A stretch of 64,000 nt of DNA from contig CBDBLO010000002.1 in assembly GCA_965207075.1 (NCBI GenBank), positions 1,088,001 through 1,152,000 of the forward strand, read 5' to 3'. Below the pieces are notes generated by a model. It was given only the letters and a program-made list of their open reading frames with translations, made no database searches and was not told where the DNA came from. Positions within the stretch are counted from its first letter, which is position 1; every line of letters begins with the position of its first letter. This stretch comes from Nitrosopumilus sp. (GTDB lineage Archaea; Thermoproteota; Nitrososphaeria; Nitrososphaerales; Nitrosopumilaceae). Below, in pieces: positions 39,740 to 57,480 of the stretch. The position numbers and the translations under genes were made by a program.

Positions 39740-39832
39740 GAGGGCGCCGTCCCACCCTGTTAAAATAAAACTATTGGATTTTAGTGTTTTTTGCGGCTTT
39801 TATAGATTTCAACTGGTAGGCATGGAAACAAG

Positions 39833-41134
39833 ATGAAAATCACTAGGGAGGAGTTCGAGGAGACGGCCGACGCGACGGCGGGCGACCCCATGGAACTGTT
39901 CATGCAGGGGATCAGGTCAGAGGAGACAAAGCGCTATTATGTGCACATGTTGCGACTCATACTGTGTGAAGTGCTGGGGGACGTACTGGACGGCACGTTT
40001 GAGCAGCGCGCCGGGCAGATCGTGCGCATGGCGCGGGACGACCCTGACCGGACGCTGTCCCTGATGCTGCGAATCTCCGCAAAACTGAGGGAGCGCACGG
40101 AGCTGCCGCACGACAACCCGGACTACATCAACCCGACGAGCATCAAGAACTACTTCAGTCCGATCAAAAAGCTGTTCAATATGAACAACGCCCCGATGCA
40201 GTGGAAGCGCGTGCACTGCACGTGGCCCGAAAGAGACAACGTGCCCGAGTCCAGGGGGTGGGAACGGCACGAGATACAGCGGATGCTCGGGTACGCCAGG
40301 AATAAGAGGGACAGGGCGCTCATACTGGTGGCCGCCAGCTCCGGCATGAGGGCGGGGGGCTTTGAGTCGCTCAGGTGGTCCGACCTCAGGCCCGTATACG
40401 TGGACGGCCGGGGGGAGCCTGCGTTTGGCGACGACCGCAGCGTGGATGGGGGCGGGGGAAGCCCGCCGGCCTGCGCCATGCTCACCGTATACGGCCGCAC
40501 CAGCGCGAGCTACCCGGCGTTCATCACGCCGGAGGCGTACGCCGCCCTGATGGAGTACCGAGAGGTGCTGACGCGCCAGTCGGGCAGACGCCCCAAGCCT
40601 GACGAGTCGATGTTCGTGGTAGTGGGGAAGCGCGGGGCGGCATCAAACGCCATGACGCAGACGGTCAGGGGGAGCATAACCCGGATAGTCACTATCACCG
40701 GACTGCGTGACAGTGGGCGCAGGGGACGGAGGTCGTATGACGTGCCAATCATGAACGGCTTCCGCCGCTTCTGGAACAAGGCGTGCAAGGAGTCGCTCTC
40801 CAAGGACTCGGCCCTGTCATCATTGATCAAGAAGGAGTACATGATGGGACATGTGGGCCTGGTGAACCTTGACAGGAACTATTTCAAGACGCACGTACTG
40901 GAACTGGCCGCGGAATACATGCAGTCCGTACCGGCCCTGACCATAGGGGACGAGGAGCGCCTCCGGCTGGCGAACGCCGCGCAGGCCGCCAGGATAGGGA
41001 GCATGCAGGACGAGCGGGACGCCGAGATCGCCGGGCTCAAGCGCACCGTAGCGGAGCTCACGCGCAGGATGGAGGGGTTCATGCGGGACGGCGGAGACGG
41101 CGGAAGCAAAGGCGGCGCGGGGATCGGAGGGTGA
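39833..41134 (+). CDS. Tyrosine recombinase / integrase
   Basis: SGMR (Arg I), NGFRRF (HxxR-equivalent), MMGH, DRNYF (Tyr); C-terminal coiled coil. Confidence 0.85.
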   Translation: MKITREEFEETADATAGDPMELFMQGIRSEETKRYYVHMLRLILCEVLGDVLDGTFEQRAGQIVRMARDDPDRTLSLMLRISAKLRERTELPHDNPDYINPTSIKNYFSPIKKLFNMNNAPMQWKRVHCTWPERDNVPESRGWERHEIQRMLGYARNKRDRALILVAASSGMRAGGFESLRWSDLRPVYVDGRGEPAFGDDRSVDGGGGSPPACAMLTVYGRTSASYPAFITPEAYAALMEYREVLTRQSGRRPKPDESMFVVVGKRGAASNAMTQTVRGSITRIVTITGLRDSGRRGRRSYDVPIMNGFRRFWNKACKESLSKDSALSSLIKKEYMMGHVGLVNLDRNYFKTHVLELAAEYMQSVPALTIGDEERLRLANAAQAARIGSMQDERDAEIAGLKRTVAELTRRMEGFMRDGGDGGSKGGAGIGG

Positions 41135-41634
41135 GTCCGATACCGCCGACCGAGAACCGCCACGTTAAATTGAAACGAAGGCAGCTTGCGCATGGCACCG
41201 TCTCCGCCCTCCCACGCCACGACGGCCGCCGACCGGGGGTACGCGGATTGACACCCTCCACCAGGGACGCCGCCTGCCTTTGCCACTCCCCCGCTCCCCC
41301 TGCTGCAGACACGCCGTACGACACGCGCGTAATCGCGGAGTCGGAGTGCTCCATCTGCGGCTCGCGCGCCGCCGCCATGATGCCGGCCGCATACATCGGG
41401 TGTTTCCTGTCCGACGGCCGCGGTCCGCAGGGGCGCTCCGTGCGCGTGTGGTGCGGTTCGTGCGGGCTGCACCGCTACGAGTCGGTGGGCGGCGTGCACA
41501 GGCTTGGGTGTCCCGTACCGTTTTCAGGCGCCCGGCCATTCAGGCAGCCGGCGGGCGCGCCGTCGCCATTCCTTCCGCTTCCACCCGCTCCAGACCCTAT
41601 GCACGTCCGCCACCGCGCGGTGAGCGCGCAATGA
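41131..41634 (+). CDS. Hypothetical CxxC protein
   Basis: CSICG and WCGSCG; GTGA/ATGA overlaps at both ends. Confidence 0.45.
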   Translation: MSPIPPTENRHVKLKRRQLAHGTVSALPRHDGRRPGVRGLTPSTRDAACLCHSPAPPAADTPYDTRVIAESECSICGSRAAAMMPAAYIGCFLSDGRGPQGRSVRVWCGSCGLHRYESVGGVHRLGCPVPFSGARPFRQPAGAPSPFLPLPPAPDPMHVRHRAVSAQ

Positions 41635-41945
41635 CCGGCTCCAACAAAGGTGGTAACTCTGTCTGCATCCGCTGCGGCTGCCGCGTGCCGGACGCCCGTC
41701 TCAACGCCGACGGTGTGTGCGCCGGCTGCGTCCGCGCGATGTTCTCCAGCGGGATCAGGCGCGCGTTCCGCAACCTCGACGACATAGACGAGATAGCCCG
41801 CGGCGTGCACCTCGATTGGACCATCTACACGCGAGACGAGACCGACGGCATACTCGCGAGCACCAAGAAAATCCGCACCCACTTGGGCAAGCTCAACCGC
41901 ATGGGAGGGAGCGGAAACTCCCGCACCCGCCGCTCCGCGGGTTAA
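41631..41945 (+). CDS. Small Zn-ribbon protein
   Basis: CIRCG...CAGC. Confidence 0.55.
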   Translation: MTGSNKGGNSVCIRCGCRVPDARLNADGVCAGCVRAMFSSGIRRAFRNLDDIDEIARGVHLDWTIYTRDETDGILASTKKIRTHLGKLNRMGGSGNSRTRRSAG

Positions 41946-41969
41946 AAGCAACACGCTGCCCTTGCGTTC

Positions 41970-42221
41970 ATGGACAAGACCGTCGAACTCATGACGCCCC
42001 GCGGGGCCGCCCTCCTGGCTCTGCGCGACGAGGCCAAGGAACTGGTCAGCGCCATTGACATCATAGAGGACTGGGGGTGGGTCGCGGGCCGGGACGACAG
42101 CGAGCGGCTTGACGAAAGCATCACGGGCACGGAGTCTGCCATGCACAAGTACCTGGAGACGCGTCCGTCGGACGCGGACGGCGCAAAGGGGCCGACAGAA
42201 TCCGGCCGCCAAGAGAGCTAA
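41970..42221 (+). CDS. Hypothetical acidic helical protein
   Basis: 83-aa ORF with protein-like composition. Confidence 0.55.
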   Translation: MDKTVELMTPRGAALLALRDEAKELVSAIDIIEDWGWVAGRDDSERLDESITGTESAMHKYLETRPSDADGAKGPTESGRQES

Positions 42222-42263
42222 TAATAACCTAACATTTATAAATAATAGGTTGTATGACATATC

Positions 42264-42392
42264 ATGAGCAAGTCATTCAGCGCGGCCGTACTTGTGGCCG
42301 CGGGTCTGGGCGGCGTGCATCTTGGTGAATTTTCCGCGCATTGCGGCCCTTGCACGCTCGACCTGTACAAGTACAGGGAGGCGGCGGCCTGA
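42264..42392 (+). CDS. 42-aa microprotein (not in the ORF track)
   Basis: MSKSFSAAV...HCGPC...EAAA*; TATA-like tttataaata at ~42235. Confidence 0.4.
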   Translation: MSKSFSAAVLVAAGLGGVHLGEFSAHCGPCTLDLYKYREAAA

Positions 42393-42435
42393 TACCCCCC
42401 CGGTCTTTTATGATTATGGGTGCATGGGGGTCGAC

Positions 42436-43167
42436 ATGATGCCAGCTGGTTCCGGAGCAAATGCAGTGGATGTCCCGCGCGGGCCCAAGCCGAGCGCCGA
42501 TATTATGCGCAAGCATGATGAGGCTGGGGACAAGAATGAGATCGACTCCATTTTCTGCGAGGTCTGCGACGGCGAGATAAGGACGACTGATGTGCGGAAG
42601 CCCGGACTGACCGTCGAGGAGTACGCCAAGGAGCCGCACGTCGTGGTGAACCGCATGGGCCATGACGGATATTCCGTGTCGATCAGGTGCCGGCACGCGT
42701 CCTGTGACGCGGGGGTGGTGCCAAGTTGGCAATTCACCGAAGAGTTCCACAGGAACGTAATCTGGCCGATAGACCGGCATACGCTCCCGACGTGCCGGAT
42801 GTGTGGTTATAACACGCCCGACTTCCGGAAGTTTACAGCCCACATGGAGTCGGAGCATGGCATTACCGTCGCCGAGAGGACTCCCGAGAAGACTTCGGAG
42901 ACGCGCACCGTCAGGCGGTGCCGGAAATGCGGGCTCCGGCTCGGACGCGAGGTCGAGCTGCCCGAGGGGTTCGCGGTGTTATGCGCCGCGTGCATCAGGC
43001 TCGTGGGCAAGGGCCTGCCGGACGCGCCGTTTGGCATTGCCCATGAATGCGAATGTGGAGACACCCTGGACGAACACGAGTACGTGGAAGACGAGAGCGA
43101 TGCCCCGTCCCCGTGCAATGAGTGCGGCTGCGAGGACTGGCGCGAGAAGAAAAAGGAGGAACCGTGA
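42436..43167 (+). CDS. Multi-zinc-finger protein (includes a C2H2-like unit)
   Basis: CEVC, CRMC...HMESEH, CRKC, CAAC, CECG...H...CNECGC. Start uncertain (42424 or 42436). Confidence 0.7.
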   Translation: MMPAGSGANAVDVPRGPKPSADIMRKHDEAGDKNEIDSIFCEVCDGEIRTTDVRKPGLTVEEYAKEPHVVVNRMGHDGYSVSIRCRHASCDAGVVPSWQFTEEFHRNVIWPIDRHTLPTCRMCGYNTPDFRKFTAHMESEHGITVAERTPEKTSETRTVRRCRKCGLRLGREVELPEGFAVLCAACIRLVGKGLPDAPFGIAHECECGDTLDEHEYVEDESDAPSPCNECGCEDWREKKKEEP

Positions 43168-43219
43168 TGTCGGGGTACCACTGCTGCCGCTGGGCACTGT
43201 ACAAGGGTGTGTCCGCGTG

Positions 43220-44080
43220 ATGGCGCCGGCGGCAACGACAAAGACAATGGCGCCAGCCGCGTCTAGGCAGATACAGTGCCACAAGTGCGGCCGGAACATG
43301 AGGAGCCGGCTGCTTGCAAACGGCGAGACCAAGCGCCACTACTGCGAGGTGTGCGCAAAGGGCAACCGTCTGTGCGAGGTGCGCTACCACTGGGACAAGC
43401 ACGCCAACGGCCTGTGCGGCAGGGACAAGAAGGCATGCGCATACTGCGGGAGCGGACTCAAACTCGTATGCGACCCAGACGACCGTGACATCGGGCGCAT
43501 GATGCAGGAGGACGAGGAGGACGAGCCCTGCAGCTATCTGGAAATCCTGTGCCCCCTGTGGTTTGAGAAGCTGCACCGCGGCATGCTCGAGGACCTCGCC
43601 ACGTTCGACAAGGACGTCGTCTCGGAGGCCTGGGGCTGGAGCGACAAGTTCCGCGAGGTGGGCGGAGAGTATTACTGCGAGGACTGCATCTCGTACAGCT
43701 ACATGCTCTTCAACGGGTCGTACCAGTTCGGCACCACGTGGGTGGAGATAAAGCTAGTCGAGACCGCAGAGTACTTTGCCCAACACTACTTTGAGATGCA
43801 CGATGGGCGAGAGGGCGAGAGGGGTCGCGCCAGGTACCTCGACGCGTGCCACGGCATGGCCTCGGCGCTGAACGGCCTTGAGACGTTCTCATTCCGCTGC
43901 AGGGAGCTGAAATACGACGACAGGAAGGACGACCTGCTGCCGTTGCTGGGGGAGCTGCGCAGGCGCTTCGTAAATGACATGCACTACAAGGCGAACGCCG
44001 CGTACGACAAGGAGGAATACGACGGCGTCATGGAACACTTCGACGGCGTCGAGAAGAACATCAGGGAGGGTTTCAAATGA
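43220..44080 (+). CDS. Cys-rich hypothetical protein
   Basis: CHKC, CEVC, CAYC, CEDC; TGATG start. Confidence 0.65.
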   Translation: MAPAATTKTMAPAASRQIQCHKCGRNMRSRLLANGETKRHYCEVCAKGNRLCEVRYHWDKHANGLCGRDKKACAYCGSGLKLVCDPDDRDIGRMMQEDEEDEPCSYLEILCPLWFEKLHRGMLEDLATFDKDVVSEAWGWSDKFREVGGEYYCEDCISYSYMLFNGSYQFGTTWVEIKLVETAEYFAQHYFEMHDGREGERGRARYLDACHGMASALNGLETFSFRCRELKYDDRKDDLLPLLGELRRRFVNDMHYKANAAYDKEEYDGVMEHFDGVEKNIREGFK

Positions 44081-44343
44081 TCCTCGAACGGGCTGATTGG
44101 AGCGACGCGACCAACAACGGACAGCTTAAGGGGACTGCTGCAAAGCGGGTCAGGCCGCGCGACAGATGTCCCGGGTGCGGGCATGCGTCCGACGCGTGGC
44201 TGGCCAGGCGCGTGCTGGAGACCGACGGCAATGAGTTTCACGACGGCGACGTATACGACTCCATGGTCTGCCGCAGCTGCGGTTACACGCTGCCGTTCGT
44301 GACGGCGACCAGGGAGATCGGCGGCAAGGAGGAGCCCGCCTGA
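44077..44343 (+). CDS. Zn-ribbon protein
   Basis: CPGCGH...CRSCG. Confidence 0.65.
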   Translation: MILERADWSDATNNGQLKGTAAKRVRPRDRCPGCGHASDAWLARRVLETDGNEFHDGDVYDSMVCRSCGYTLPFVTATREIGGKEEPA

Positions 44344-44618
44344 TGCCCTGCCGCGGCGTCTGCAGGCGCCCCGAATACGCGTTCCGTCCAACGTTCCGGG
44401 TCAGGGGCCGGCAGTCGCTGTATGCGTGCGGCGCCAAGATGTGCATTCCGTGCGCGGCGTGGCTGGAGTGGGACGGGCGGCTCTGCCCCTGCTGCAGCAA
44501 GCAGCTGCGCACGCGTCCACGCAACGCTAGATTCAAGCGCAAATGGATGGAGAAAGTACTCGTGGCGGCCACCGTGCAAGCCGGAGGCGCCCCGGCCAAG
44601 AGGGAGGGGCGGGACTGA
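44343..44618 (+). CDS. Small Cys-rich protein resembling a common thaumarchaeal family
   Basis: MxCxGxC...CxxC...WDGxxCPCC...LRTRPRN. Confidence 0.7.
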   Translation: MPCRGVCRRPEYAFRPTFRVRGRQSLYACGAKMCIPCAAWLEWDGRLCPCCSKQLRTRPRNARFKRKWMEKVLVAATVQAGGAPAKREGRD

Positions 44619-46403
44619 ATGGCGGACGAAATACATGACACCACCACCACCGTCCCCACCACGGCGGCGGCGGAAGCGCCCGCCGCGGCAGGAAACACAG
44701 CAGCCATGGGGGAGACTGCCGCGGTCCAGCCGCCCGCCGCCCTGGAGCAGCACATCGCGGCCGTGTCAAAACGCATAGACGATTCTGAGGCGGAGGCCAG
44801 CGCCAAGTACGACGAGATGCGCAGGGATCTCGGGGAAAAACTCGCCGCCGCCCGCCGGGTGCTGGACGGCTACGAGGCGGAGGCCAGCGCCCAGTACGCC
44901 AAGATGCGCAAGGAGTATGAGTCAAAGCTTGATGCCGCCCGCCAGGAGATCATAGACCTCACGCTTTCCGCGGAGCCGGAGCCGGAGCAAAAGACCGGAT
45001 ACCATCCGGGCGCCACCGAGCTGTTCGAGGGCCTCGGCGTCGACCTCGCGGAGTTCCGCAAGTTCGCCGAGCACCCCTACTTCATGTACCCCGGCAAAAA
45101 AGGCAGCGTCTACGTGATGGTACCCAAGTTCTACCCGAGGTTCCAGTGCGGGTGGCTGCTTGACACCGTAGATGATGTTTGGAACCGCTATGAGATCAAT
45201 CCGTACTCGGTGCTCTTCGGCAGCGTGCCGGAGGACATCAAGAAGCACCTCGACCTGCCGACCCCGATCCCAGTCACGGTGGACGGCGACCGCATAACCT
45301 TCAGGCCGGAGGACCGCAAGGAAGTGAGGCGGCGCCTGCCGTCCCACCTGACGGACTGGACCGAAAATTCGGCCCGCATCACTAAAAACAACGAGTTCAA
45401 CATCATCGACCGCATTCTGCGGTCCGGCAGGGTGCCGTTCACGCCGTACCCCGTCAGAGACGAACACGCCCGCGGGCCGGCGCCGGCGTTCAAGCTGCGC
45501 CCCTACCAGCAGGAGGCCTTTGACAACTTTCTGAAGACGGGCGCCGTCGGCGTCTTCCACCCGACCGGCAGCGGCAAGTCCTACGTCGGGCTTTCCGCGC
45601 TGTCGCGCATACGCGTCGGCAGCCTGCGGAACCTCATAATAGTCCCGACGCGGACGCTGATCAGCCAGTGGCAGGCATACATGAGGGAGCACGCGCCGGA
45701 GGCCCTGAAACGCACCCTCATAGTCACATACAAGGCCAACTTTGACTATTCTGAGCGGTTCGGGCTTGTCATATACGACGAGTGCAGGCAGTTGCCGGCG
45801 CCCACGTTCGCTAGGCTGTCCACCATCAAGACCGAGTACCGGATGGGGCTGGACGCCACCCCCTACCGGGAGGACGGGCAGAACCACTTGATAATGACGC
45901 TGACCGGCCACTCGCAGACGCTGAACTGGCAGCACTACATGAGGACGTGGGGTCCTGGCTACCATGCGGTGAACGTGCACGTCGTCAGGAGGACGCAGGA
46001 CAAGATGGAGAGGGCAAAGAAGCTGTACGACCCGAGGCGCCGCACGATGTTCTATTCGTTCCACCTGGAGCCCGGCCAGAAGCTGGCCCGCAAGTTCGGG
46101 CTGCCGTTCATCAGCGCCGCCACCGAGGACAGGCTGGCCGTCATCGAGGAGAACCGGTCGTTCGTCTGCAGCAGCGTAATGGGTGAGGGTGTCAGTATTG
46201 CGGACCTCGACGACATCATCGAGATCGACTTCCTCTACGGGAGCCGCCGCGAGGAGATGCAGCTCTCCGGCAGGCTCATGCATTCCAAGCGCCCGAACAA
46301 GCGCCACCACATAATCATGACCGAGGAAGAGTTCGACAGGTACGAGAAGAGGCTGTTCAGTCTAGAGGGGAACGGCTTCCACGTGAAGCTGGTGAGGGGC
46401 TGA
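44619..46403 (+). CDS. Superfamily 2 helicase (XPB/Rad25/ResIII-like)
   Basis: LRPYQ, PTGSGKS, IIVPT, YDEC, GLDATP, GEGVSI, QLSGRL. Confidence 0.85.
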   Translation: MADEIHDTTTTVPTTAAAEAPAAAGNTAAMGETAAVQPPAALEQHIAAVSKRIDDSEAEASAKYDEMRRDLGEKLAAARRVLDGYEAEASAQYAKMRKEYESKLDAARQEIIDLTLSAEPEPEQKTGYHPGATELFEGLGVDLAEFRKFAEHPYFMYPGKKGSVYVMVPKFYPRFQCGWLLDTVDDVWNRYEINPYSVLFGSVPEDIKKHLDLPTPIPVTVDGDRITFRPEDRKEVRRRLPSHLTDWTENSARITKNNEFNIIDRILRSGRVPFTPYPVRDEHARGPAPAFKLRPYQQEAFDNFLKTGAVGVFHPTGSGKSYVGLSALSRIRVGSLRNLIIVPTRTLISQWQAYMREHAPEALKRTLIVTYKANFDYSERFGLVIYDECRQLPAPTFARLSTIKTEYRMGLDATPYREDGQNHLIMTLTGHSQTLNWQHYMRTWGPGYHAVNVHVVRRTQDKMERAKKLYDPRRRTMFYSFHLEPGQKLARKFGLPFISAATEDRLAVIEENRSFVCSSVMGEGVSIADLDDIIEIDFLYGSRREEMQLSGRLMHSKRPNKRHHIIMTEEEFDRYEKRLFSLEGNGFHVKLVRG

Positions 46404-46477
46404 GTGTTGCACATGAATTCACCCGCCTCACACGTACTGCAACGCCCCCCTTATTTACAATCGGAGGTGTTACACCC

Positions 46478-46876
46478 GTGAGCCAGGTACTCCCCCCCGC
46501 CCCCGCGACGACCCCGCGCGATACGTGCGGTACCTGCGGACATTCCACGTACGAGCACATGTCCGGCTCCCCGGTCTACCTGATGTACCACGCCGGCACC
46601 ACGTATGTCCTGCGGTCCGTCGACCCGGGGAACGTGGAGCGCGACGTGCGCAGCCTGTATGGCCGGTGGGGGATGGAGTCGACAGACAGCACGACCGTCA
46701 CCATAATCGAGGTACCGGCCCGCCGGATAAACCGCAGTGCGATGCACGCCGACCATTGGACGCGCTGGATAGATGACGGCAGGCGCACGGAGGCGGAACT
46801 AGTGACGGATACAGGGATACGCATTTCAGAGCAGGTCATACGCGGCAGGCCCGTGTACGGCACGGAGGAGGGCTGA
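46478..46876 (+). CDS. Hypothetical protein with N-terminal CxxCGH motif
   Basis: CGTCGHSTYEH; upstream ttatttac and GGAGG. Confidence 0.6.
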   Translation: MSQVLPPAPATTPRDTCGTCGHSTYEHMSGSPVYLMYHAGTTYVLRSVDPGNVERDVRSLYGRWGMESTDSTTVTIIEVPARRINRSAMHADHWTRWIDDGRRTEAELVTDTGIRISEQVIRGRPVYGTEEG

Positions 46877-46882
46877 GGACTG

Positions 46883-47032
46883 ATGGTTGACGTATACCCT
46901 CGCGCGTCCGCCCCGGACGACAGTCATTGCGCCGGATGCGGACACCGTGAAAATGGCCACCTCATAGATGCCTGTCTGCATGACGGATGTGATTGCAACG
47001 GGTTCAGCCCCAGCGACGGAGGCTCTACCTGA
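46883..47032 (+). CDS. 49-aa Cys/His microprotein (not in the ORF track)
   Basis: HCAGCGHRENGH...CLHDGCDCNGF; paralogous to the N-terminus of 51270..51581. Confidence 0.7.
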   Translation: MVDVYPRASAPDDSHCAGCGHRENGHLIDACLHDGCDCNGFSPSDGGST

Positions 47033-47322
47033 TGTCACTCACCGGAGTCTCGGCAAAGGCGATCCAGCTACGGCATGAAGAATCCAAGAGGATCGCACGA
47101 CTGCCGCCCTCTGACGCCGCCCCGTCGGCGGCGCTGGCGGTGCATGTCGTCGAGATACGCGCACTGGCAGACTATCTCGAAGCAGCCATAAACGACAACG
47201 ACAAGATTGCTGAGGCCATCAAGACATACGCTAGATGGCGCCTTGTCTCTGGCAACTGGGTCTACGATATGGACGCCCTGATGAAGCGGTGCGCCGCAAA
47301 AGGAGGGGGAACCGCCGCATGA
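47032..47322 (+). CDS. Hypothetical helical protein
   Basis: TGATG start, ATGA end. Confidence 0.6.
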   Translation: MSLTGVSAKAIQLRHEESKRIARLPPSDAAPSAALAVHVVEIRALADYLEAAINDNDKIAEAIKTYARWRLVSGNWVYDMDALMKRCAAKGGGTAA

Positions 47323-47660
47323 CCGTCACCCGCCGCAACTGGTTACAAACCGTCCCGCCCAGCATCGCCAACCACGACGCGCTGTTTGACTTTGTATATG
47401 ATGCCGAGAACTGGACGGGCGTCGAACCCCACTGCGAGGACATCATGCGCCGAGCCACGCTGGATGGCGGGCACATGTGGCTGCACCACGACACGCGACA
47501 CGCGACCACCACCTTTCACAGCATCCAAACCAAGCTCCGCATAATGTGGTTCATGTGCGTGTCCTGCAGCCGCGTCCGCATCGAGGTCAAGCCGGTGGCG
47601 GCCGAGCCGTGGGAGGACGACGCCACTGCCCGCTTTTACACCGCGAGGCCGCTGCCATGA
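47319..47660 (+). CDS. Hypothetical protein, paralog A
   Basis: NWL...EPHC...GGHMW...MCVSC...FYTARPLP. Confidence 0.7.
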   Translation: MTVTRRNWLQTVPPSIANHDALFDFVYDAENWTGVEPHCEDIMRRATLDGGHMWLHHDTRHATTTFHSIQTKLRIMWFMCVSCSRVRIEVKPVAAEPWEDDATARFYTARPLP

Positions 47661-48004
47661 CCACCATAAAGCCAAACTGGCTGTACGACCCGCCGGACAC
47701 CATCGCCACCCCCAACGGCGTGCCGTTCAAGTGGATAAGGGACACCGACAGGTGGTCTGCGCGCGAACCCTCCTGCAACTACGGCAACGATGAGGACGGC
47801 GGCCACATGTGGCAGGAGCACGGTACCAGGTTCGCCCGCAACACGTACTTTGGCAAGCTGACGAACCTGGAGATCATCTGGTACATGTGCATATCATGCC
47901 ACAGGCTCCGCATCGACGTGCGCCACCACGTGGGCAAGGCTTCAAAAGATGCAGACTTGATCCGCACGTTTGCCCACTTTTACACTGTGAGGCCGCTGCC
48001 ATGA
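47657..48004 (+). CDS. Hypothetical protein, paralog B
   Basis: NWL...EPSC...GGHMW...MCISC...FYTVRPLP. Confidence 0.7.
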   Translation: MTTIKPNWLYDPPDTIATPNGVPFKWIRDTDRWSAREPSCNYGNDEDGGHMWQEHGTRFARNTYFGKLTNLEIIWYMCISCHRLRIDVRHHVGKASKDADLIRTFAHFYTVRPLP

Positions 48005-48207
48005 CCGTACAGGACTGCATTGACATCTGGCGCAACACCGCTGTCTCCCTCAAGAAGGAGGCGGAACGGGCGCCCCCGGATCTTGGAGACTTCATCGCAT
48101 CCATACGGGACAAGGCGTCAATATACGAGGAGTGCGCCAAGAAGCTTGAGGAAGAGGTAGGAAACACTGACACGGTTGGCCACAGCCACGCGGGAGGCGG
48201 CGACTGA
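48001..48207 (+). CDS. Small helical hypothetical protein
   Basis: MTVQDCIDIW...; overlaps both neighbours. Confidence 0.55.
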   Translation: MTVQDCIDIWRNTAVSLKKEAERAPPDLGDFIASIRDKASIYEECAKKLEEEVGNTDTVGHSHAGGGD

Positions 48208-49181
48208 TGGACGGCACCCCACACGGCCATGAATGCACTGCAGACGGCTCCATGGAGCCCACCACGTACCTGCTGACTGATGAAAATTACGAAAGGGCGG
48301 TCATACTGGAATCACCGCCGTCCTCGTCTGCGGTTGTGTGTATCATGCGCGCCTGGCCCGCGCCGGCTGGGACGCGCCCGCACTCTCAAACCTACGGCCA
48401 GTACGGCATAATCCATGAGGTGCCGTCCTCGCGCGTGCTGTACGCGGCGCTGGCGGACGGCACGCATTCCCTGCCGGAAGTGGTCCCGACGTGTAACGGC
48501 GACAACATGCGCGCGGAGGGCTACGACGATCCGTTCGTTGCCATACACCCGCCGGAGCCGGACTGCCCCCACGCCCCCAAAGACGGTAAAGACCGTGGGC
48601 ATCTGTGGGGGGCGCACTGGCGCGTGTCCGGGTGCCGGATAGAGGACAAGCCGGGCATATCTCCCGACGCCGCCGGGCGCGGGCTGATCATCAGGGAGCA
48701 CTGCACGCGGCCCAGCTGCTACGCGACAAGGACGCGCGAGACGGATGCAGTGGATGACGGACGTGACGCCGAGACTGAGTGCTACCTGCGCATCACATAC
48801 GGCAAACTGCCGGCCGAGTCCATGGCGGATCACGACAAGACGTACGGGCCTAACCCGCGCGTACTGCAGGCGGACGCGCTGAAACTCATCCCCGACGACG
48901 GCGAATACCACGACATCGGCGTGGAGTGGAGGGGGCACGAGTATCTCATGGCATGCACCGTCGACGGTGACGGCGGCTCACATGTCTGCCCCGGCGCCAG
49001 GCGCATCCCGGTCTATGGGAAAATATGGACGGGCGGCTCTCGGGTCATATCGGTGGACGGTTCGGGCAGGTATACCACGAAGCCCAAGGTTGCCGGCCTG
49101 CAGCTCCTAACCACGTTCTGCGACGCGTGCGGCCTGGAGGCGGACGCCCACCCTGACATTGCAGTGGAGGCGGCGGCCTGA
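48207..49181 (+). CDS. Hypothetical protein with an EPxC...GHxW...CxxxxC module
   Basis: 324-aa ORF with TGATG junctions at both ends. Confidence 0.6.
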   Translation: MDGTPHGHECTADGSMEPTTYLLTDENYERAVILESPPSSSAVVCIMRAWPAPAGTRPHSQTYGQYGIIHEVPSSRVLYAALADGTHSLPEVVPTCNGDNMRAEGYDDPFVAIHPPEPDCPHAPKDGKDRGHLWGAHWRVSGCRIEDKPGISPDAAGRGLIIREHCTRPSCYATRTRETDAVDDGRDAETECYLRITYGKLPAESMADHDKTYGPNPRVLQADALKLIPDDGEYHDIGVEWRGHEYLMACTVDGDGGSHVCPGARRIPVYGKIWTGGSRVISVDGSGRYTTKPKVAGLQLLTTFCDACGLEADAHPDIAVEAAA

Positions 49182-49444
49182 TGGCAAACAAACACCCCTC
49201 ACGAACTGTGGACATTCCAGGTCTCGGGCGGGCAGAAATTGACAAGGAGATGGTGTCAGTCATCACCGAGCTGAACCGGCTCGGCTTCCGCACGTTGAAG
49301 TGCTGTCAGGGCGACGACGAGTGGATACGCTACATAGAGTTTGACATGGGCGCCGTCGAATGCGAGTTTGAGGATGCAGAGATTGATGATGATGGCAGGC
49401 ACAAGCCCAAACTGCGGATCAGCGTAAAGGGGGCGGCGGCCTAA
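49181..49444 (+). CDS. Hypothetical protein
   Basis: ID.EM...I.ELNRLGFRT..CCQG...YIEF. Confidence 0.6.
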   Translation: MANKHPSRTVDIPGLGRAEIDKEMVSVITELNRLGFRTLKCCQGDDEWIRYIEFDMGAVECEFEDAEIDDDGRHKPKLRISVKGAAA

Positions 49445-49587
49445 TGTCCTGCGACATGTGCGGACACAGCCACGAGGGCCAGACGTGTTCCTTTGCGGCG
49501 TGGGTGGACGTGGTGGATGGCGTCGGCCACGTAAGCAAGGAGTACATCCGATGCCAGTGCCTAAACTACGAGGAGGCGAAGGACTGA
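49444..49587 (+). CDS. 47-aa Cys/His microprotein (not in the ORF track)
   Basis: MSCDMCGHSHEGQTC...RCQC; TAATG and TGATG junctions. Confidence 0.65.
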   Translation: MSCDMCGHSHEGQTCSFAAWVDVVDGVGHVSKEYIRCQCLNYEEAKD

Positions 49588-49796
49588 TGGGCGGTGTAAT
49601 GGTATCGGACTCGATTTCGCGCGACGAGCCGTGCTCGGACTGCGGGCATCCGAAATACGACCACGACGACCACAGGTGCGGGCAGTGCCCGTGCACGAAC
49701 ACCTTCACGTGCAGTGGCTGCGGGCACGCCTGGTTCCACCACCACTTTTCAAACTGCGAGGGCGGCTCCGACTGCCCGTGCGACAGGAGGCCCTGA
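49587..49796 (+). CDS. Microprotein with two CxxCGHxxxxH...CxC units
   Basis: CSDCGHPKYDH...CGQCPC; CSGCGHAWFHH...C...CPC. Confidence 0.65.
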   Translation: MGGVMVSDSISRDEPCSDCGHPKYDHDDHRCGQCPCTNTFTCSGCGHAWFHHHFSNCEGGSDCPCDRRP

Positions 49797-49798
49797 GA

Positions 49799-50077
49799 AT
49801 GTTTGAACAGAACCCGCAGTACGCCGGCGGCATACGCACCCTCAAGTGCACCGAGGACACGATCAAGAGGTGGATGCGCCGCCGCGGGGCGGTTCGCATA
49901 TGCAACGTCTGCAAAAAGACAATAGACCTGGGGCAGTGGTATACCGTAGAGCACGTCGGCGTCATGGACCCGATCTGGTTCGTCAAGCACGTCGAGTGCA
50001 TGACCGCGCCGAGGGACTGCGGCGACAGCTCGCTCAGGGAGATCAGGGAGCACATCAGGGAGGCCGACGCCCGGTGA
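49799..50077 (+). CDS. Small CxxC...HxxC protein
   Basis: CNVCKK...HVEC. Confidence 0.6.
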   Translation: MFEQNPQYAGGIRTLKCTEDTIKRWMRRRGAVRICNVCKKTIDLGQWYTVEHVGVMDPIWFVKHVECMTAPRDCGDSSLREIREHIREADAR

Positions 50078-50241
50078 CATGCAAGAACTGCGAACACGAC
50101 GCGGACGACCACGCAAGCGAGGCCGTGGTGGCCGGCGGCGGGTCGCCGTGCACTGCCGGCGTCACTTCGGCCGACGACGACCTCGGGGGCGGCATGCAGA
50201 CGGTGAGTAGGTGTCCGTGCAAAGGATGGGAGGCGGCCTAG
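50074..50241 (+). CDS. Cys/His microprotein
   Basis: CKNCEHDADDH...C...RCPCKGW; GTGA overlap. Confidence 0.6.
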   Translation: MTCKNCEHDADDHASEAVVAGGGSPCTAGVTSADDDLGGGMQTVSRCPCKGWEAA

Positions 50242-50652
50242 ATGGGCGATCCGAAGTGCGGCGGGCAGATCGTCATGAAGGACTGCAAGCGCCACGGCCG
50301 CAAGCACACGGGCACCATGTGCCCGCAGTGCATACCGTCATGCATCGGCGAGCGGCCGCCGGACGTCCGGACCGAGCATGAATGGAAGAAGACCCCACAC
50401 AAGAACCAGAAGCTGAAGTGCGCCAAATGCGGCGCCATAGTGGTCGTGCGCGGGCTGCTGTTTGACATAACCCGGCTGCCGCGCGGGCTCGTCTCCGAGA
50501 AGCTCCCGGCCTGCAGTCCGGGCCGCATGCACGAGTGGGACGTGCTAGACAACAAGGATTCGTCGTTCACCGTTGGGTGCCCGCGCTGCGGCAAGTGCGT
50601 CAGGATTGACGGGTTCGGCTTTGAGATCACCAAGGGGTGGAGGCATGAGTAA
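50242..50652 (+). CDS. Multi-CxxC protein
   Basis: CPQC, HEW..CAKCG, HEW..CPRCG. Confidence 0.6.
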   Translation: MGDPKCGGQIVMKDCKRHGRKHTGTMCPQCIPSCIGERPPDVRTEHEWKKTPHKNQKLKCAKCGAIVVVRGLLFDITRLPRGLVSEKLPACSPGRMHEWDVLDNKDSSFTVGCPRCGKCVRIDGFGFEITKGWRHE

Positions 50653-50842
50653 TGAGCAGGCCGACCAGGCTGACGACAGTCCGGTGAAACTACACCACAT
50701 TTGCGACGACATGTGCTATTCGATTGTTACGCACGAGCACCCGGAATACGCGATATGCGACACCGCGCAGGAGCGCGACAGGGACATCTGGGGGTGTGAC
50801 GACGAATTTGAGGACGAGTTCTGCGAGGAGGGTGAAGACTGA
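50645..50842 (+). CDS. Small acidic Cys/His protein
   Basis: HHICDDMC...; D/E-rich tail. Confidence 0.5.
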   Translation: MSNEQADQADDSPVKLHHICDDMCYSIVTHEHPEYAICDTAQERDRDIWGCDDEFEDEFCEEGED

Positions 50843-51270
50843 TGCCTGCAGACGCCGCCAGTCTACATCCACATGGGGCCGAAAACCATGGAAGCTCTCA
50901 AAAAATGAGCGCGGAACCATACGACTACGCATCATGCGAGTTCCGCCGCGTCAAGGACAACGACAGTCATAACTACGATGCGAAGGTGAGGTGCCTCGGC
51001 GTGAAGTACTCCTGCTTCGGGGACATGCCAAGCTTTGACGGCACGCCGGCATGCGGCGGCAACTGCCCGCAGAAGGGCACGTGGCGCGGCCCAAAGTGCG
51101 GGGCCGTCATGCCCGACCGGGACGCCAGAAACCACGCATACCACGTGCACGACGTTACGTCGTGGGAAGTATCAGCTACGTCCGGAGGCTTCATGCACGG
51201 CGGCGGCGCCCCCAGTTCAAGCTGGGAAGACCAGCCGCCGCCGAAGAACATGTTGGAGGCGTTCACGTGA
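50842..51270 (+). CDS. Cys/His-containing hypothetical protein
   Basis: TGATG junctions at both ends; KCG...NHAYHVH. Confidence 0.55.
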   Translation: MPADAASLHPHGAENHGSSQKMSAEPYDYASCEFRRVKDNDSHNYDAKVRCLGVKYSCFGDMPSFDGTPACGGNCPQKGTWRGPKCGAVMPDRDARNHAYHVHDVTSWEVSATSGGFMHGGGAPSSSWEDQPPPKNMLEAFT

Positions 51271-51581
51271 TGGCAAATGAAAAGAGATGCGCCGCCTGCG
51301 GCCACCTGCTGCGGTGGCACCGCACGGCGGACGGCGACTGCCTCCACGACGGCTGCGCGTGCGAGAAATTCACCCCCGAGCAGCGCATCGACAGGGGGCG
51401 CAACGGGCGCAGAAAGTACCCCGTCGTGCCTCCCGAGGAGCTCGCCAAGTACTGCGGGGTCTGCCGCAACGGACAGCACTCCAGCTGCACGGGCAGGCGC
51501 ATCAAGCCGGGACACCCGCGAAGCCCCAAGTCCCCGAAGGTGCCGTGCGAGTGCCCTCGGCACGGAGGGGGGAGCGCCTGA
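51270..51581 (+). CDS. Two-module Cys/His protein
   Basis: CAACGHLLRWH...CLHDGCACEKF plus CGVCRNGQHSSC...PCECPRH. Confidence 0.65.
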   Translation: MANEKRCAACGHLLRWHRTADGDCLHDGCACEKFTPEQRIDRGRNGRRKYPVVPPEELAKYCGVCRNGQHSSCTGRRIKPGHPRSPKSPKVPCECPRHGGGSA

Positions 51582-51769
51582 TGTCCCTGATCAAGCAGTA
51601 CATCAGGTGGCGCATGCGCAACGCCGGCAAGTACTGGAGGTGTGACTTGTGCGGCGCCGAGTCCGGCACTGACGGTGACGTGGTTGCCAAGGCGGCCGAG
51701 CACACGCGCTTCCACGAGACCGGCGGGATTGAACGCCCGCGCGGCGCGCACACGGAGGCCCGGGCATGA
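51581..51769 (+). CDS. C2H2-like microprotein
   Basis: WRCDLCG...EHTRFH. Confidence 0.6.
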   Translation: MSLIKQYIRWRMRNAGKYWRCDLCGAESGTDGDVVAKAAEHTRFHETGGIERPRGAHTEARA

Positions 51770-51954
51770 TGGGCTTCGGAGGATACACCGGCAGGTACGG
51801 GCAGATCAGCATGATGCCCTACGAGGTGCGGAGGCGCCTGACGTCCGCCTGTTACAGCGGTCACCACAACAAGTGCGGCGGCGGCAACAACGCCCAGCGC
51901 CTGGATCCGTGCCCGTGCCCGTGCCACGGGCCGGAGGAGGCGACCGCGGCTTGA
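51766..51954 (+). CDS. Cys/His microprotein
   Basis: ACYSGHHNKC...PCPCPCHG; similar to the C-terminal module of 51270..51581. Confidence 0.6.
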   Translation: MMGFGGYTGRYGQISMMPYEVRRRLTSACYSGHHNKCGGGNNAQRLDPCPCPCHGPEEATAA

Positions 51955-52157
51955 CCTCCCACACAACGGCACTGCGGGACGCCGCATGCGTCGTGTGCGG
52001 AAAGCCGTTCAACGCGGACGGCACGGGCAACGACATATGCGTGTCATGTTGGTCGCACCCCGGTGACGCGTGCGCCGGGTGTGGGCTTGCGCGCAACGAC
52101 CACTTTCATCCGGACGGCGCGGGCGGCTGCCCGGGGTTCAGGGAGCCGGCAAAATAG
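51951..52157 (+). CDS. Cys/His microprotein
   Basis: CVVCG...CVSC...CAGCGLARNDH...CPGF; TTGA overlap. Confidence 0.55.
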   Translation: MTSHTTALRDAACVVCGKPFNADGTGNDICVSCWSHPGDACAGCGLARNDHFHPDGAGGCPGFREPAK

Positions 52158-52170
52158 GAGGAATGGAGGA

Positions 52171-52449
52171 ATGGCAAGCCCGGTCACCGTATTGTGGGTC
52201 GACAAGTATGACAAGTACTACTGCAGGGAGTGCAATGACTTCATCAGGCCTGAGTCATGTCGAGACCGCCGCGACAGCCAGTACGTGCACGATCTTGACA
52301 AGGCGTACGCCCACGTTATGGAGGCGCACCGCGCGAACGCCATGACGGTCCGGAAGGTGAGGAAGTTCCCAAGGCCGCCTGTAAAAAGACTCGCCGACGT
52401 CTTGGGCGGAGACGCAGCTGACGTGGAAGAGGGGGAGGGGCGCCGATGA
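52171..52449 (+). CDS. C2H2-like small protein
   Basis: YYCREC...AHVMEAH; GGAGG upstream. Confidence 0.6.
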   Translation: MASPVTVLWVDKYDKYYCRECNDFIRPESCRDRRDSQYVHDLDKAYAHVMEAHRANAMTVRKVRKFPRPPVKRLADVLGGDAADVEEGEGRR

Positions 52450-52501
52450 CCACCCCGCCCCACGCCGCCACCGTGACAGTGGCGTGGCGGAGGGCTGTGC
52501 C

Positions 52502-52864
52502 ATGAGCTTGGAACGCGGCGGCCGGATTGCCGTGTTCGGCGACGGCGGTCACCCCACGTCCGCCGCGCCGACGACCGCGCCGATTCAGTCCCCCACCAAG
52601 CAGGACCCGTTCGCCATGCCCTCCGAGCAGGAGCTTGTCAGGTGCATCATCGAGTCCACCCGCGAGGTCGACGAACGCTCCGCCCAGGTGTCCGACATGC
52701 TGAAGGACTTGGCAAGCCCCGGTGCCGGACGGGACGGGCCCGCCACGGTCCGCGCCGAAAGCGACATCCATGCCGCGTACACGCGGCTGGCCGACGCCCG
52801 GCTCGCCCAGAGGCGGGCGGCCGTGAGGTTGTGGAGGGCGCGCAACGACGCGGGTGCGCGGTGA
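52502..52864 (+). CDS. Hypothetical helical protein
   Basis: ATG at 52502, GGAGG upstream. Confidence 0.45.
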   Translation: MSLERGGRIAVFGDGGHPTSAAPTTAPIQSPTKQDPFAMPSEQELVRCIIESTREVDERSAQVSDMLKDLASPGAGRDGPATVRAESDIHAAYTRLADARLAQRRAAVRLWRARNDAGAR

Positions 52865-52937
52865 AAAGCGCGCCTGCAGCAGCTGCCCTGAAGTTGGGGA
52901 GGATCCGTTTTTTATACATCGCCCGCGAGCGATCGGC

Positions 52938-53102
52938 ATGGGTTCTCAATGCTATGTGTGTGGCAGTGAAATACACGACGGGCTGTTTGAAGGCGAGTCG
53001 GCAATAAGATGTAGTGCGTGTGGCAACTCTGTCCACGACAGTCCGAATTGCCGCGGCCTGAAAGACGGCAGCGTCGTGTGCGGCATATGCTCCGCAAGAT
53101 GA
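52938..53102 (+). CDS. PHD/RING-like Cys-rich microprotein
   Basis: CYVC...CSAC...H...C...CGIC; TATA-like ttttatac ~25 nt upstream. Confidence 0.6.
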   Translation: MGSQCYVCGSEIHDGLFEGESAIRCSACGNSVHDSPNCRGLKDGSVVCGICSAR

Positions 53103-55116: not shown

Positions 55117-55152
55117 TACGGCGTCTTTTACACGCCACCGCGTACTGCATGC

Positions 55153-56085: not shown

Positions 56086-56131
56086 AGCCCGTAGCTAAGT
56101 AGGTTATAAGGTACTGGTAACATGACTTGCG

Positions 56132-56326
56132 ATGTCAGACGAACGCGCGGAGTTGGTGACGGAAAAGGAAAGACTTGAAGCAGAGTTTATTCAGATGGAG
56201 AACGCAGAGATACTGGCCATAAGGGATGACAACCAGGTGCACCCTGATGTCCCGAAACGGAAGGACGAAATCAAGGCAAGGCTGGGAGAAGTCAACCGGC
56301 GGCTGAACGAGATACGCGGCGCTTGA
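56132..56326 (+). CDS. Small coiled-coil protein
   Basis: 64 aa, charged heptads; TATA-like ttataag at ~56104. Confidence 0.6.
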   Translation: MSDERAELVTEKERLEAEFIQMENAEILAIRDDNQVHPDVPKRKDEIKARLGEVNRRLNEIRGA

Positions 56327-57469: not shown

Positions 57470-57480
57470 CCCCGGCGGGG

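Follow-up and report, generated by a model that had tools for sequence, protein, structure and literature searches.

The 64,000-nucleotide stretch of Nitrosopumilus sp. DNA analysed here (the window) contains, from 41131 to 53102, an array of about 30 small, co-oriented and mostly cysteine-rich genes directly behind a probable tyrosine recombinase. The array is best read as the integrase-proximal part of the variable cargo of a 150.9-kb thaumarchaeal integrative and conjugative element (ICE), with products that would act as small zinc-binding modules in the service of that element. For this reading as a whole, structure and proposed functions together, a probability of about 0.6 seems appropriate. 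Its structural part, namely that the array is a cargo region of an ICE, is very probably correct, while its functional part is tentative. The finding is real, larger than first noted and within a known class of elements. The initial annotation had described a self-contained array of about 12 kb behind the recombinase; what is present instead is the first 13 kb of the 150.9-kb element, in which at least three other blocks are alike. Coordinates follow the numbering of the window and are carried on beyond its end as island coordinates, and C2 refers to the 2.19-Mb chromosome contig of this genome (G000).

The borders of the element emerge from comparison with the nearest species genomes, G151, G265 and G325, all of the same genus. 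Synteny with the window reaches the host gene for a DRG-type GTPase in these three genomes and then ends, and the DNA that follows this gene in them corresponds to C2:1278921 onwards, which lies 151 kb downstream here. No DNA counterparts of 53103-58000, or of most of 56000-64000, were found in the same three genomes. The junctions carry a short repeat, CTATTGGATT, of which a search of both strands of the 2.19-Mb contig found exactly two copies, in direct orientation and one per junction. In addition, a 19,195-nt contig from run X8 follows the window over 39000-39780 with only 26 differences in 781 letters; past 39780 it departs from the window, and its next letters agree, as judged by eye, with the right-flank sequence at 24 of 30 positions. 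Since this contig bridges 39780 to the right flank, it represents an empty site in a close relative. The insertion is an integrated, repeat-bounded element with an empty site in three species genomes and one metagenome contig, and the repeat positions together with the empty sites define an insert of 150.9 kb, from window position 39781 to the equivalent of 190677. The element sits between genes, with the host DRG gene on one side and a HAD-like gene on the other. As the window has no tRNA gene, no tRNA served as the integration target. A 12-mer common to 39791 and 58116 was also considered as an att site and was rejected when alignment gave no extension.

The genes of the insert agree with the assignment to an ICE. 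The TraG/VirD4/TrwB-like coupling ATPase matches PF10412 (38 bits), PF12696 (32.3 bits) and PF02534 (22.1 bits), all above their cut-offs. A VirB4-like ATPase of 704 aa (182372-184486) matches AAA_10 (40.5 bits; cut-off 27.5) and DUF87 (27 bits; cut-off 23.2). The island also encodes T2SSF (TadC-like, 50.2 bits) and T2SSE (PilB/FlaI-like, 63.8 bits) proteins, a prepilin-peptidase candidate (Peptidase_A24, 21.2 bits, under the 26.5 cut-off) and a primpol fused to a D5-type (S3H) helicase. According to the main text of PMC6563490, thaumarchaeal ICEs carry this gene set, have att sites down to 8 bp and use intergenic targets; 15 of its 68 elements lie in intergenic regions, the median ICE size is 64 kb, and archaeal ICEs are described there as having no known origin of transfer or relaxase. 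Paralogs of about 25 of the backbone families are found in two further islands of the genome (C2 ~710-761 kb and ~1719-1784 kb), where the array genes have none. Nor are these two other ICE copies hot spots for small proteins with multiple CxxC motifs. As a separate observation, these sister islands (C2 ~710,400-760,600 and ~1,719,400-1,783,800) carry genes for pilin-like, TraG-like, VirB4-like and T2SSE/F proteins and for unknown proteins of 1150-1250 aa, and no Cys-rich cargo; extra TraG paralogs are found at C2:1919690 and 1941400 beside an integrase paralog.

The recombinase at the left end is the only member of its family in the island. Two paralogs (E2 and E3), at C2:2129341 and C2:1912461, share 57% identity with it, and R173, R311/R312, H340 and Y350 are invariant in the three proteins; we tentatively take these residues to be the tyrosine recombinase set R..H/KxxR..H..Y. 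Comparison of the island with the paralog regions by ORF-based tblastn (ORF, open reading frame) indicated that a gene for a CxxC protein of 45-46 aa directly follows both paralogs, one of which has a TraG paralog 6 kb downstream. The small gene that adjoins the integrase paralogs elsewhere is at 57353 here, and therefore about 16 kb, including the array, separates the usual neighbours. The name tyrosine recombinase, given in the initial annotation, is probable and fits the position of the gene at the att junction; its support from sequence is weak, for the reasons considered below.

Two gene sets were compared for the array: a hand model with 31 ORFs (genes g02 to g31 in Table 1 belong to it) and the output of an automatic codon-usage caller trained on the long ORFs of the genome. 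In the ORF list and the hand model, plus-strand genes run without interruption from the integrase (39833-41134) to about 53102, with about 30 co-oriented genes after the integrase. A sliding plot of GC content at third codon positions (GC3) tracked the plus-strand frames of the hand model from 39833 to about 52860 and switched frame where predicted, with values mostly between 0.75 and 0.95 in the proposed frames. Weak spots lie at 42140-42400, at 46820-46910 (g11) and at 52850-53100 (g31). In 41131-53102, the automatic caller kept 28 genes, all on the plus strand and with a median length of 94 aa, and missed g02, g11 and g31. Thus, GC3, hand model and automatic caller agree on the run of about 30 co-oriented genes first proposed.

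The junctions between these genes are tight. All 22 of the stop/start motifs listed in the initial annotation (10 TGATG, one TAATG and 11 (A/G/T)TGA) were found in place. Of the same-strand junctions in the automatic calls, 28 are in the array and 10 of these overlap by 1 or 4 nt; such overlaps make up 63 of 175 junctions elsewhere in the island and 163 of 1279 in the remainder of the genome. In the hand model, where an overlapping start was chosen whenever one was present, about 21 of 30 array junctions overlap. An NTGA overlap alone comes cheaply by chance, because three of the four bases before TGA yield a start codon, while TGATG does not. GGAGG is complementary to the archaeal 16S rRNA 3′ end, as in Shine-Dalgarno (SD) sequences. 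Matches to GGAGN{5,12}ATG number 91 in the window, compared with 64 ± 8 in shuffled sequence, and 41131-53102 has 27 of them on the plus strand and four on the minus strand. About 19 SD-like GGAG(G) motifs end exactly on predicted array starts, including those of the bridging micro-ORFs at 43167 and 52446. The placement of these motifs is the strongest support for the coupled translation predicted here. Some words are also shared by junctions between otherwise divergent genes. For instance, a 36-nt repeat at 47627-47662 and 47971-48006 (92% identity) includes SD-like GGAGG/GAGG and the stop/start overlap, and a 17-nt word (family D6, 88-100% identity), also with GGAGG and the stop/start overlap, is found at 42377-42393, 49166-49182 and 49429-49445.

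The array proteins are strongly enriched in cysteine, which makes up 4.27% of their residues versus 1.07% in the rest of the genome. CxxC motifs number 1.03 per 100 aa versus 0.08, 68% of array proteins have at least one CxxC versus 14%, and 32% have at least two versus 6%. For proteins shorter than 150 aa, a cysteine share of 5.07% in the array and of 4.82% elsewhere in the island compares with 1.74% in the remaining genome. The early description of mostly small Cys/His-rich genes, laid out for polycistronic expression, is borne out by these values and by the overlapping junctions. The labels C2H2, PHD/RING and Zn ribbon had to be given up, as no Pfam model reached its cut-off. The best zinc matches under the cut-offs are zf-C2H2_2, at only 14.1 bits in g05 (cut-off 26.9), and RUBY_RBDX, at 18 bits (cut-off 26.5), with further ones to HVO_2753_ZBP and DZR_2 (Table 1); the Pfam scan gave no match of array proteins to RING or PHD models. 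From the motifs themselves we infer that the array products bind zinc.

Similar genes are abundant beyond the array. Runs of small, overlapping, co-oriented CxxC genes lie elsewhere in the island at 118886-124665 and 129881-147147 on the minus strand and at 186238-189748 on the plus strand, with shorter runs at 64-74 kb and 99-102 kb. The chromosome encodes 128 proteins of fewer than 200 aa with at least two CxxC motifs, and 68 of them are in the island, which covers 6.9% of the chromosome length. The island contains at least four blocks of this kind, and the array, which is variable cargo, is one of them. In the largest runs, at 118886-147147 (C2:1206886-1235147), about 90 minus-strand genes are interrupted by genes for HMG-CoA reductase, Nampt and RNA ligase.

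One compact motif recurs within this set. The pattern C-x2-C-[G/Q]-H-x4-H-x(4-9)-C-x(2-5)-C-x-C (C2H2C3) is present in six copies in five array proteins (g11, g18, g19 with two, g21 and g25); a partial copy is found in g10, and three further island proteins carry the full motif. Its seven ligands are invariant in two alignments, of seven (A4) and 15 (A5) sequences. A profile of the motif retrieved 48 proteins at E ≤ 0.001 from 1.84 billion representatives, some with five or six tandem copies, and in ten of the 48 that were scanned no Pfam family covers the motif. Weak PCAF_N matches to two multi-repeat relatives (E 0.024 and 0.058), below any threshold, were dropped. The AlphaFold 2 (AF2) model of g11 has a mean confidence (pLDDT) of 73; its best Foldseek match among solved structures in the PDB has an E value of 2.2, with generic zinc fingers only, and the A5 profile reached no better than E 0.12 against PDB sequences. 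The profile also matches 143 of 151 sampled Nitrosopumilaceae genomes, a tally that takes in the unpublished genomes G271, G381 and G382. Most of these matches fall within an ORF of about 200 aa. It encodes a conserved hypothetical protein that has 785 relatives and lacks any Pfam domain, and whose named relatives belong to Nitrosopumilus and Nitrosarchaeum only. In one copy of this host protein, of about 194 aa (L074:1378-1959, minus strand), the motif was seen near the C-terminus. As judged from sequence, C2H2C3 is a compact predicted zinc motif that lies outside all Pfam models and links mobile microproteins to a conserved host protein.

The array is conserved in part and varies between relatives. 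A related sequence, L063, is a 30-kb contig of a metagenome-assembled genome of the Nitrosopumilaceae. It holds homologs of g05, g06, g08, g12, g25, g26 and g30, all on one strand, along with counterparts of 14 genes that belong to the island blocks at 101, 119-124 and 133-147 kb. Relative to the island, the order is changed and g07 is lost between g06 and g08, while the pairs g05-g06 and g25-g26 are retained. Over 21 best-hit pairs with L063, in which some L063 ORFs count for two paralogs, 101 of 116 cysteine positions are conserved, compared with 1014 of 1977 positions (51%) for other residues, a contrast that is somewhat inflated because BLAST scoring favours C-C matches. The conservation of Cys motifs in homologs, a check suggested at the outset, is thereby confirmed. 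Among 5.8 billion proteins, g06 has four relatives (98, 70, 68 and 67% identity), with 13 of 15 cysteines invariant, and g16 has two in the protein collection (94% and 78%). The ESM Atlas yielded no usable lead (best score 0.77 for g06, no match for g16), and the AF2 model of g06, built from five sequences, was unusable (pLDDT 45.5). For g08, paralogs are found in the island at 133818-134024 and at C2:419442, and homologs in G172 and L063. Taken together, the GC3 frames, the SD-like motifs and homologs at 33-84% identity with most cysteines kept show, as far as sequence data can, that the array genes are real.

A gene-sized deletion is seen in run X7. A contig from this run, 96-97% identical to the window, joins 47632 directly to 47977, so that 344 nt (47633-47976), equivalent to one of g13/g14, are missing; the break falls in the 36-nt repeat that ends both genes (family D5). 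Loose contig ends in runs X2 and X6 lie at 42220 and 42251, the limits of an AT-rich spacer. In run X8, read coverage is near zero over 45.0-52.9 kb, which is not counted as absence, as no listed contig spans the gap. The idea of an expandable gene library, advanced in the initial annotation, fits the variable gene set, the shuffling seen in L063 and the X7 contig lacking one of g13/g14. By the same token, only half of another early concern, that the block might be a fixed and already described provirus or ICE backbone, applies here: the class of element has been described, but the block is cargo and is not fixed.

These observations would be accounted for by the following model. The array may be expressed as about three polycistrons from three TATA-like boxes, one ahead of the integrase and the others at 42.24 and 46.45 kb, and translated by SD-guided initiation with re-initiation at the 1- and 4-nt overlaps. 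The products would be small zinc-binding modules that contact nucleic acid or host proteins and serve the element; they might regulate the ICE, control transcription or DNA transactions of the host, or, after transfer, neutralise recipient defences. The XPB-like helicase within the array might serve replication, recombination or transfer of the element by acting on its DNA, and the cargo could gain and change genes by cassette-like recombination at the conserved gene junctions. As for the functions named in the initial annotation (anti-defence, host takeover or metal buffering), they found no backing: PADLOC matched the helicase core only, and PHROGs gave nothing beyond it. A bolder version of the model, which we consider unlikely, would see in the more than 60 predicted zinc-binding microproteins a recombining library of decoys or competitors of host zinc-domain proteins, combined with counter-defence expressed on entry, as an archaeal counterpart, built on mimicking a host domain, of the leading regions with anti-defence genes in bacterial plasmids. 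It draws on the at least nine stand-alone C2H2C3 copies and on the same domain in the host protein of about 194 aa, found in 143 of 151 genomes.

Several points weigh against the ICE-cargo interpretation or parts of it. Neither Pfam nor PHROGs nor PADLOC named any array protein except the XPB-like helicase and, weakly, the integrase, so that the roles of these proteins are inferred. The integrase itself matches Phage_integrase (PF00589) at 22.3 bits, under the cut-off of 27.1, and a search by sequence found no PDB relative for it. The three putative promoters were read by eye, and the cysteine contrast is inflated to the degree mentioned above. The TFIIB homolog of thaumarchaeal ICEs usually adjoins ParB, according to the main text of PMC6563490; in the island, a TFIIB Zn-ribbon reached only 17.3 bits (cut-off 29) in a 285-aa protein (161436-162293), and its 257-aa neighbour has only a MazE/AbrB-type match. 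A length of 151 kb, compared with a median of 64 kb, may indicate a second, piggy-backing element inside the island. Finally, the helicase family is common in predicted viral contigs as well.

The initial annotation placed a superfamily 2 (SF2) helicase inside the array, and g09 is indeed one. It matches ResIII (48.6 bits) and DEAD in Pfam and PHROG 16, DNA helicase (E 7e-23), and the closest solved relatives of its core are archaeal XPBII/Rad25 chains (E 2e-19 to 2e-17, the best being XPBII); the second RecA-like domain is weakly matched (Helicase_C, 14.2 bits; ERCC3_RAD25_C, 14.9 bits). The host has its own, more distant copy at C2:1648410. Across the order, 128 of 301 genomes match g09 at E ≤ 1e-5, mostly in the SF2 core only, and eight have full-length orthologs; the tally takes in the unpublished genomes G260 and G108. 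At the eight ortholog loci, no other array gene is common, except for the g08 homolog in G172, and at the two that were mapped co-oriented small CxxC genes surround the helicase. G265 has a remnant, 261 nt with 70% protein identity, at L028 (C1:1122000-1141900), beside homologs of two ICE backbone genes, and this locus looks like a decayed relative of the element. In IMG/VR, the family, N-terminal region included, was confirmed in 209 of 277 candidate stretches, and of 80 that were kept 35 are near full length. One of the IMG/VR contigs, L077, has the look of a tailed virus, with an apparent large terminase, an HNH nuclease and a RecB-like nuclease recognised by eye. Frequent as it is in IMG/VR contigs, the helicase is therefore part of a gene pool common to viruses and plasmids.

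The helicase leads to the first alternative, in which a provirus, or a virus-derived module carried in the island, contributes the block as its early or replication region, and the zinc proteins are viral early proteins. Besides the IMG/VR stretches and L077, this possibility gains from the Nampt, RNA ligase and DUF5131 genes of the island and from the gene layout, since viral genomes typically contain small overlapping genes in long co-oriented runs. Nevertheless, no capsid, portal or terminase family was detected in 40 island proteins outside the array and 30 inside it, with about 190 left unscanned. Furthermore, g06 has no relative in IMG/VR, and a phage collection queried with g25 and the helicase returned no isolated virus, only an unannotated 9-kb record with 24% identity to the helicase; IMG/VR also includes mis-called integrated elements. 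On balance, a viral origin of the block is unlikely.

Placed about as low is the idea of a small cryptic element in its own right, integrated at the edge of the island or nested in it and made up of the integrase, the helicase and the small genes (39.8-53.1 kb, or to 57.3 kb). The 16 kb between the integrase and the small gene at 57353 look inserted, and the helicase loci of the eight other genomes lack TraG, pilin and other backbone genes within the 4.6-20 kb fetched. The main text of PMC6563490 likewise describes a thaumarchaeal cryptic element that replicates through an SF2 helicase. By contrast, the 10-mer brackets all 151 kb, with no third copy on the contig and no near copy (13-mer, up to three mismatches) between 39.8 and 64 kb, the island has a single integrase, and the empty sites in relatives lack the whole 151 kb. 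L063, moreover, mixes array homologs with homologs of island blocks 80-100 kb away, and the helicase remnant of G265 lies beside backbone homologs. A nested element is thus improbable.

That the block is instead a host-beneficial island for defence or metal handling, be it a helicase-based anti-virus system or zinc buffering, is very unlikely. The helicase core matches PbeA (61 bits) and HamB (24 bits) in PADLOC, Cys and His are abundant, and an Eco57I-like methylase-endonuclease and a NucS-like protein are encoded elsewhere in the island. However, the PADLOC matches are confined to about 70 residues of the common SF2 motif region, and the nine other proteins compared with PADLOC gave no match. 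Among solved structures the helicase is closest to XPB/Rad25, Pfam scans of the array revealed neither metallothionein-like nor transporter families, and the block is missing from the nearest relatives. Hardly credible, lastly, is that many of the small ORFs arose by chance in DNA rich in GC, leaving the helicase and a few larger genes as the only real ones: at 60-68% GC, long ORFs do appear in every strand and frame, g11, g31 and both micro-ORFs have weak or no GC3 signal, and three of 31 hand-model ORFs were not called automatically, but the frame-specific GC3 follows the model over nearly all junctions, the SD-like motifs favour the plus strand and sit on starts, seven array proteins have homologs in L063 and two (g06 and g16) in the protein collection, and the motif ligands of g11 are invariant (7/7) in 15 sequences.

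The features of the array and its surroundings are collected in Table 1. Between the array and the first backbone genes lies further cargo, including a gene similar to that of dihydroorotate dehydrogenase (DHOD; Pfam DHO_dh, 106 bits) and one at 55153-56085 which we take, from reading its sequence, to be sugar-kinase-like; for both, a diverged host paralog was seen, at C2:601143 and C2:123554 with 36% and 52% identity, respectively. The 101-aa backbone protein is presumably pilin-like, as read by eye from its sequence. Directly upstream of the TraG-like gene is an ORF for a CxxC-type protein of 40 aa (59241-59363), preceded by a strongly AT-rich spacer (59070-59165). Pfam scans of the rest of the island identified the Eco57I-like methylase-endonuclease, NucS-like protein, Nampt, RNA ligase and HMG-CoA reductase already mentioned, as well as an RNase-H-like protein, ThiF and DUF5131. 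The island also encodes an ArdC-N protein (112634-113473, about 60 kb from the array), a PD-(D/E)XK nuclease and, in all, two bPH-SHOCT proteins. No Rfam families were found in 38-60 kb of the window. On the host side, a 60-nt tandem repeat array at 37183-38039, just upstream of the DRG gene, is repetitive in the three nearest relatives too; on its minus strand (37227-38009), it encodes a 260-aa protein of KKATVAKRKPGRPAKKATAA units, AT-hook or histone-tail-like.

Table 1. Features in and around the small-gene array, in window coordinates (aa, amino acids; TM, transmembrane)
Feature	Position	Strand	Description and support
Host DRG-type GTPase gene	38618..39739	-	Left flank; 77-79% DNA identity and syntenic in G151, G265, G325; name by sequence reading
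attL core	39771..39780	+	10-bp direct repeat CTATTGGATT; other copy C2:1278668-1278677 (window equivalent 190668-190677)
TATA-like AT-rich box	39797..39806	+	~30 nt upstream of integrase ATG; putative promoter, by eye
Integrase	39833..41134	+	Probable tyrosine recombinase, 433 aa; sole family member in island
g02	41131..41634	+	167 aa; GTG start overlaps integrase stop; 2 CxxC; GC3 0.82-0.90; absent from automatic calls
g03	41631..41945	+	104 aa; 2 CxxC; GC3 and automatic call
g04	41970..42221	+	83 aa; acidic, without Cys; GC3 and automatic call
AT-rich TATA-like spacer	42233..42247	+	Putative internal promoter; alternative contigs diverge here
42-aa ORF	42264..42392	+	Ends in shared junction word GGAGGCGGCGGCCTGAT; automatic call; repeat family D6
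g05	42424..43167	+	247 aa; several CxxC pairs; C-terminal part homologous in L063; Cys 9/9 conserved
Micro-ORF, g05-g06 bridge	43167..43220	+	17 aa; TGATG at both ends, GGAGG upstream; putative
g06	43220..44080	+	286 aa; 8-Cys N-terminal region and helical C-terminal part
g07	44077..44343	+	88 aa; 2 CxxCG; not present between g06/g08 homologs in L063
g08	44343..44618	+	91 aa; 8 Cys; Cys 8/8 conserved; no Pfam family
g09	44619..46403	+	594 aa; coiled-coil N-terminus, family-specific domain, XPB/Rad25-like SF2 helicase
TATA-like box	46450..46461	+	Within 74-nt gap after helicase; putative promoter, by eye
g10	46478..46876	+	132 aa; partial CxxCGHx4H motif
g11	46883..47032	+	49 aa; one C2H2C3 domain; GC3 weak
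g12	47032..47322	+	96 aa; 1 Cys; homolog in L063
g13	47319..47660	+	113 aa; 39% identical to paralog g14
g14	47657..48004	+	115 aa; 3′ end shares 36-nt repeat (family D5) with g13
g15	48001..48207	+	68 aa; GC3 and automatic call
g16	48207..49181	+	324 aa; island paralogs 101429-101941 and 119224-119919; no Pfam, PHROG or PADLOC match
g17	49181..49444	+	87 aa; SD-like motif scan
g18	49444..49587	+	47 aa; C2H2C3 domain carrying insert
g19	49587..49796	+	69 aa; tandem pair of C2H2C3 domains; orthologs P0011, P0016
g20	49799..50077	+	92 aa; SD-like motif scan
g21	50074..50241	+	55 aa; C2H2C3 variant
g22	50242..50652	+	136 aa; several CxxC; Pfam HVO_2753_ZBP 18.8 bits, under 33.2 cut-off
g23	50645..50842	+	65 aa; acidic, 5 Cys
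g24	50842..51270	+	142 aa; 121 aa if start is 50905
g25	51270..51581	+	103 aa; C2H2C3 at N-terminus; Cys 10/10 conserved; L063 homolog adjoins g26 homolog
g26	51581..51769	+	62 aa; CxxC...HxxxH; homolog in L063
g27	51766..51954	+	62 aa; Cys-rich
g28	51951..52157	+	68 aa; 3 CxxC; Pfam DZR_2 18 bits, under 27 cut-off
g29	52171..52449	+	92 aa; automatic call and SD-like motif scan
Micro-ORF, g29-g30 bridge	52446..52505	+	19 aa; GGAGG upstream; putative
g30	52502..52864	+	120 aa; 1 Cys; L063 homolog 33% identical
g31	52854..53102	+	82 aa; 4 CxxC; coding support weak: without clear GC3 signal, not called automatically
Island cargo beyond array	53142..57300		177-201-aa minus-strand ORF, DHOD-like 54301-55116, sugar-kinase-like 55153-56085, 191-aa ORF
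38-aa CxxC gene	57353..57469	+	45% over 42 aa to small gene trailing integrase paralogs
bPH + SHOCT protein	57481..58107	-	Pfam scan
ICE backbone, pilin-like and membrane proteins	58169..58900	+	Two-TM pilin-like, 101 aa, and membrane protein, 141 aa; paralogs in two other ICE copies
TraG/VirD4/TrwB-like coupling ATPase	59405..63442	+	1345 aa; ICE backbone; Pfam; paralogs in genome

The genome that carries the element measures 2.23 Mb in two contigs, with 60% GC, and encodes AmoA (387 bits). AmoA, together with the restriction of named relatives of the conserved protein to Nitrosopumilus and Nitrosarchaeum, identifies the host as an ammonia-oxidising thaumarchaeon of the Nitrosopumilaceae. A placement in the Methanomassiliicoccales, to which GC content and the appearance of the flanking genes had pointed, was rejected on these grounds. 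In three sponge metagenome runs, small shares of the array are present, and the host appears to live in sponges, although this is a hint about habitat only. What is known of mobile elements in ammonia-oxidising archaea comes almost entirely from sequence, with their cargo labelled hypothetical. The element described here is a clean and delimited case, with base-exact borders, an empty site in relatives and two sister ICEs without the cargo. In it, about 100 kb of predicted small zinc-protein genes have accumulated, which are conserved and shuffled between relatives, and arranged in a way that suggests coupled translation. The element thus opens questions about the role of small CxxC proteins in archaeal mobile elements and about how such gene sets grow, and it may bear on the plasticity of symbiont genomes, given the apparent sponge habitat of the host.

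Some features of the array have parallels in other systems. Archaeal viruses and plasmids encode small zinc-finger or zinc-ribbon ORFans, and short CxxC proteins occur in them in dense, co-oriented and overlapping runs. The present case differs in scale, as 68 small proteins with at least two CxxC motifs, more than half of those of the chromosome, are in one element, and in that the recurring seven-ligand motif is also found inside a conserved host protein. In bacterial conjugative plasmids, leading regions contain anti-defence islands of small co-oriented accessory genes. Similarly, the array consists of co-oriented small accessory genes at the end of an element that has an ArdC-N-like protein; in contrast to leading regions, the ArdC-N gene is about 60 kb away from the array, and Pfam and PHROGs assign none of the array proteins to a known anti-defence family. 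Like XPB/Rad25 (ERCC3), g09 has a helicase core that aligns and that is matched by ResIII, but it differs by an N-terminal extension of 290 residues, with coiled-coil repeats and a family-specific domain, that is common to the orthologs in mobile elements and viral contigs.

The closest resemblance is to the thaumarchaeal ICEs, as presented in the main text of PMC6563490 (Krupovic et al. 2019). The shared features are a probable tyrosine-type integrase, a very short att repeat and an intergenic site; VirD4/TraG-like and VirB4-like ATPases, with a primpol-superfamily 3 helicase fusion for replication; TadC-like and FlaI/PilB-like proteins, accompanied by candidate prepilin-peptidase-like and pilin-like proteins; and conserved genes whose synteny is not kept between copies. 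Arrays of small CxxC genes such as these are not described in that main text, whose supplementary annotation may list similar genes. Unlike those ICEs, the element is 150.9 kb long, far over their median of 64 kb and, unlike its own sister copies, it devotes about two thirds of its genes to cargo without paralogs in them, mostly long runs of small CxxC genes.

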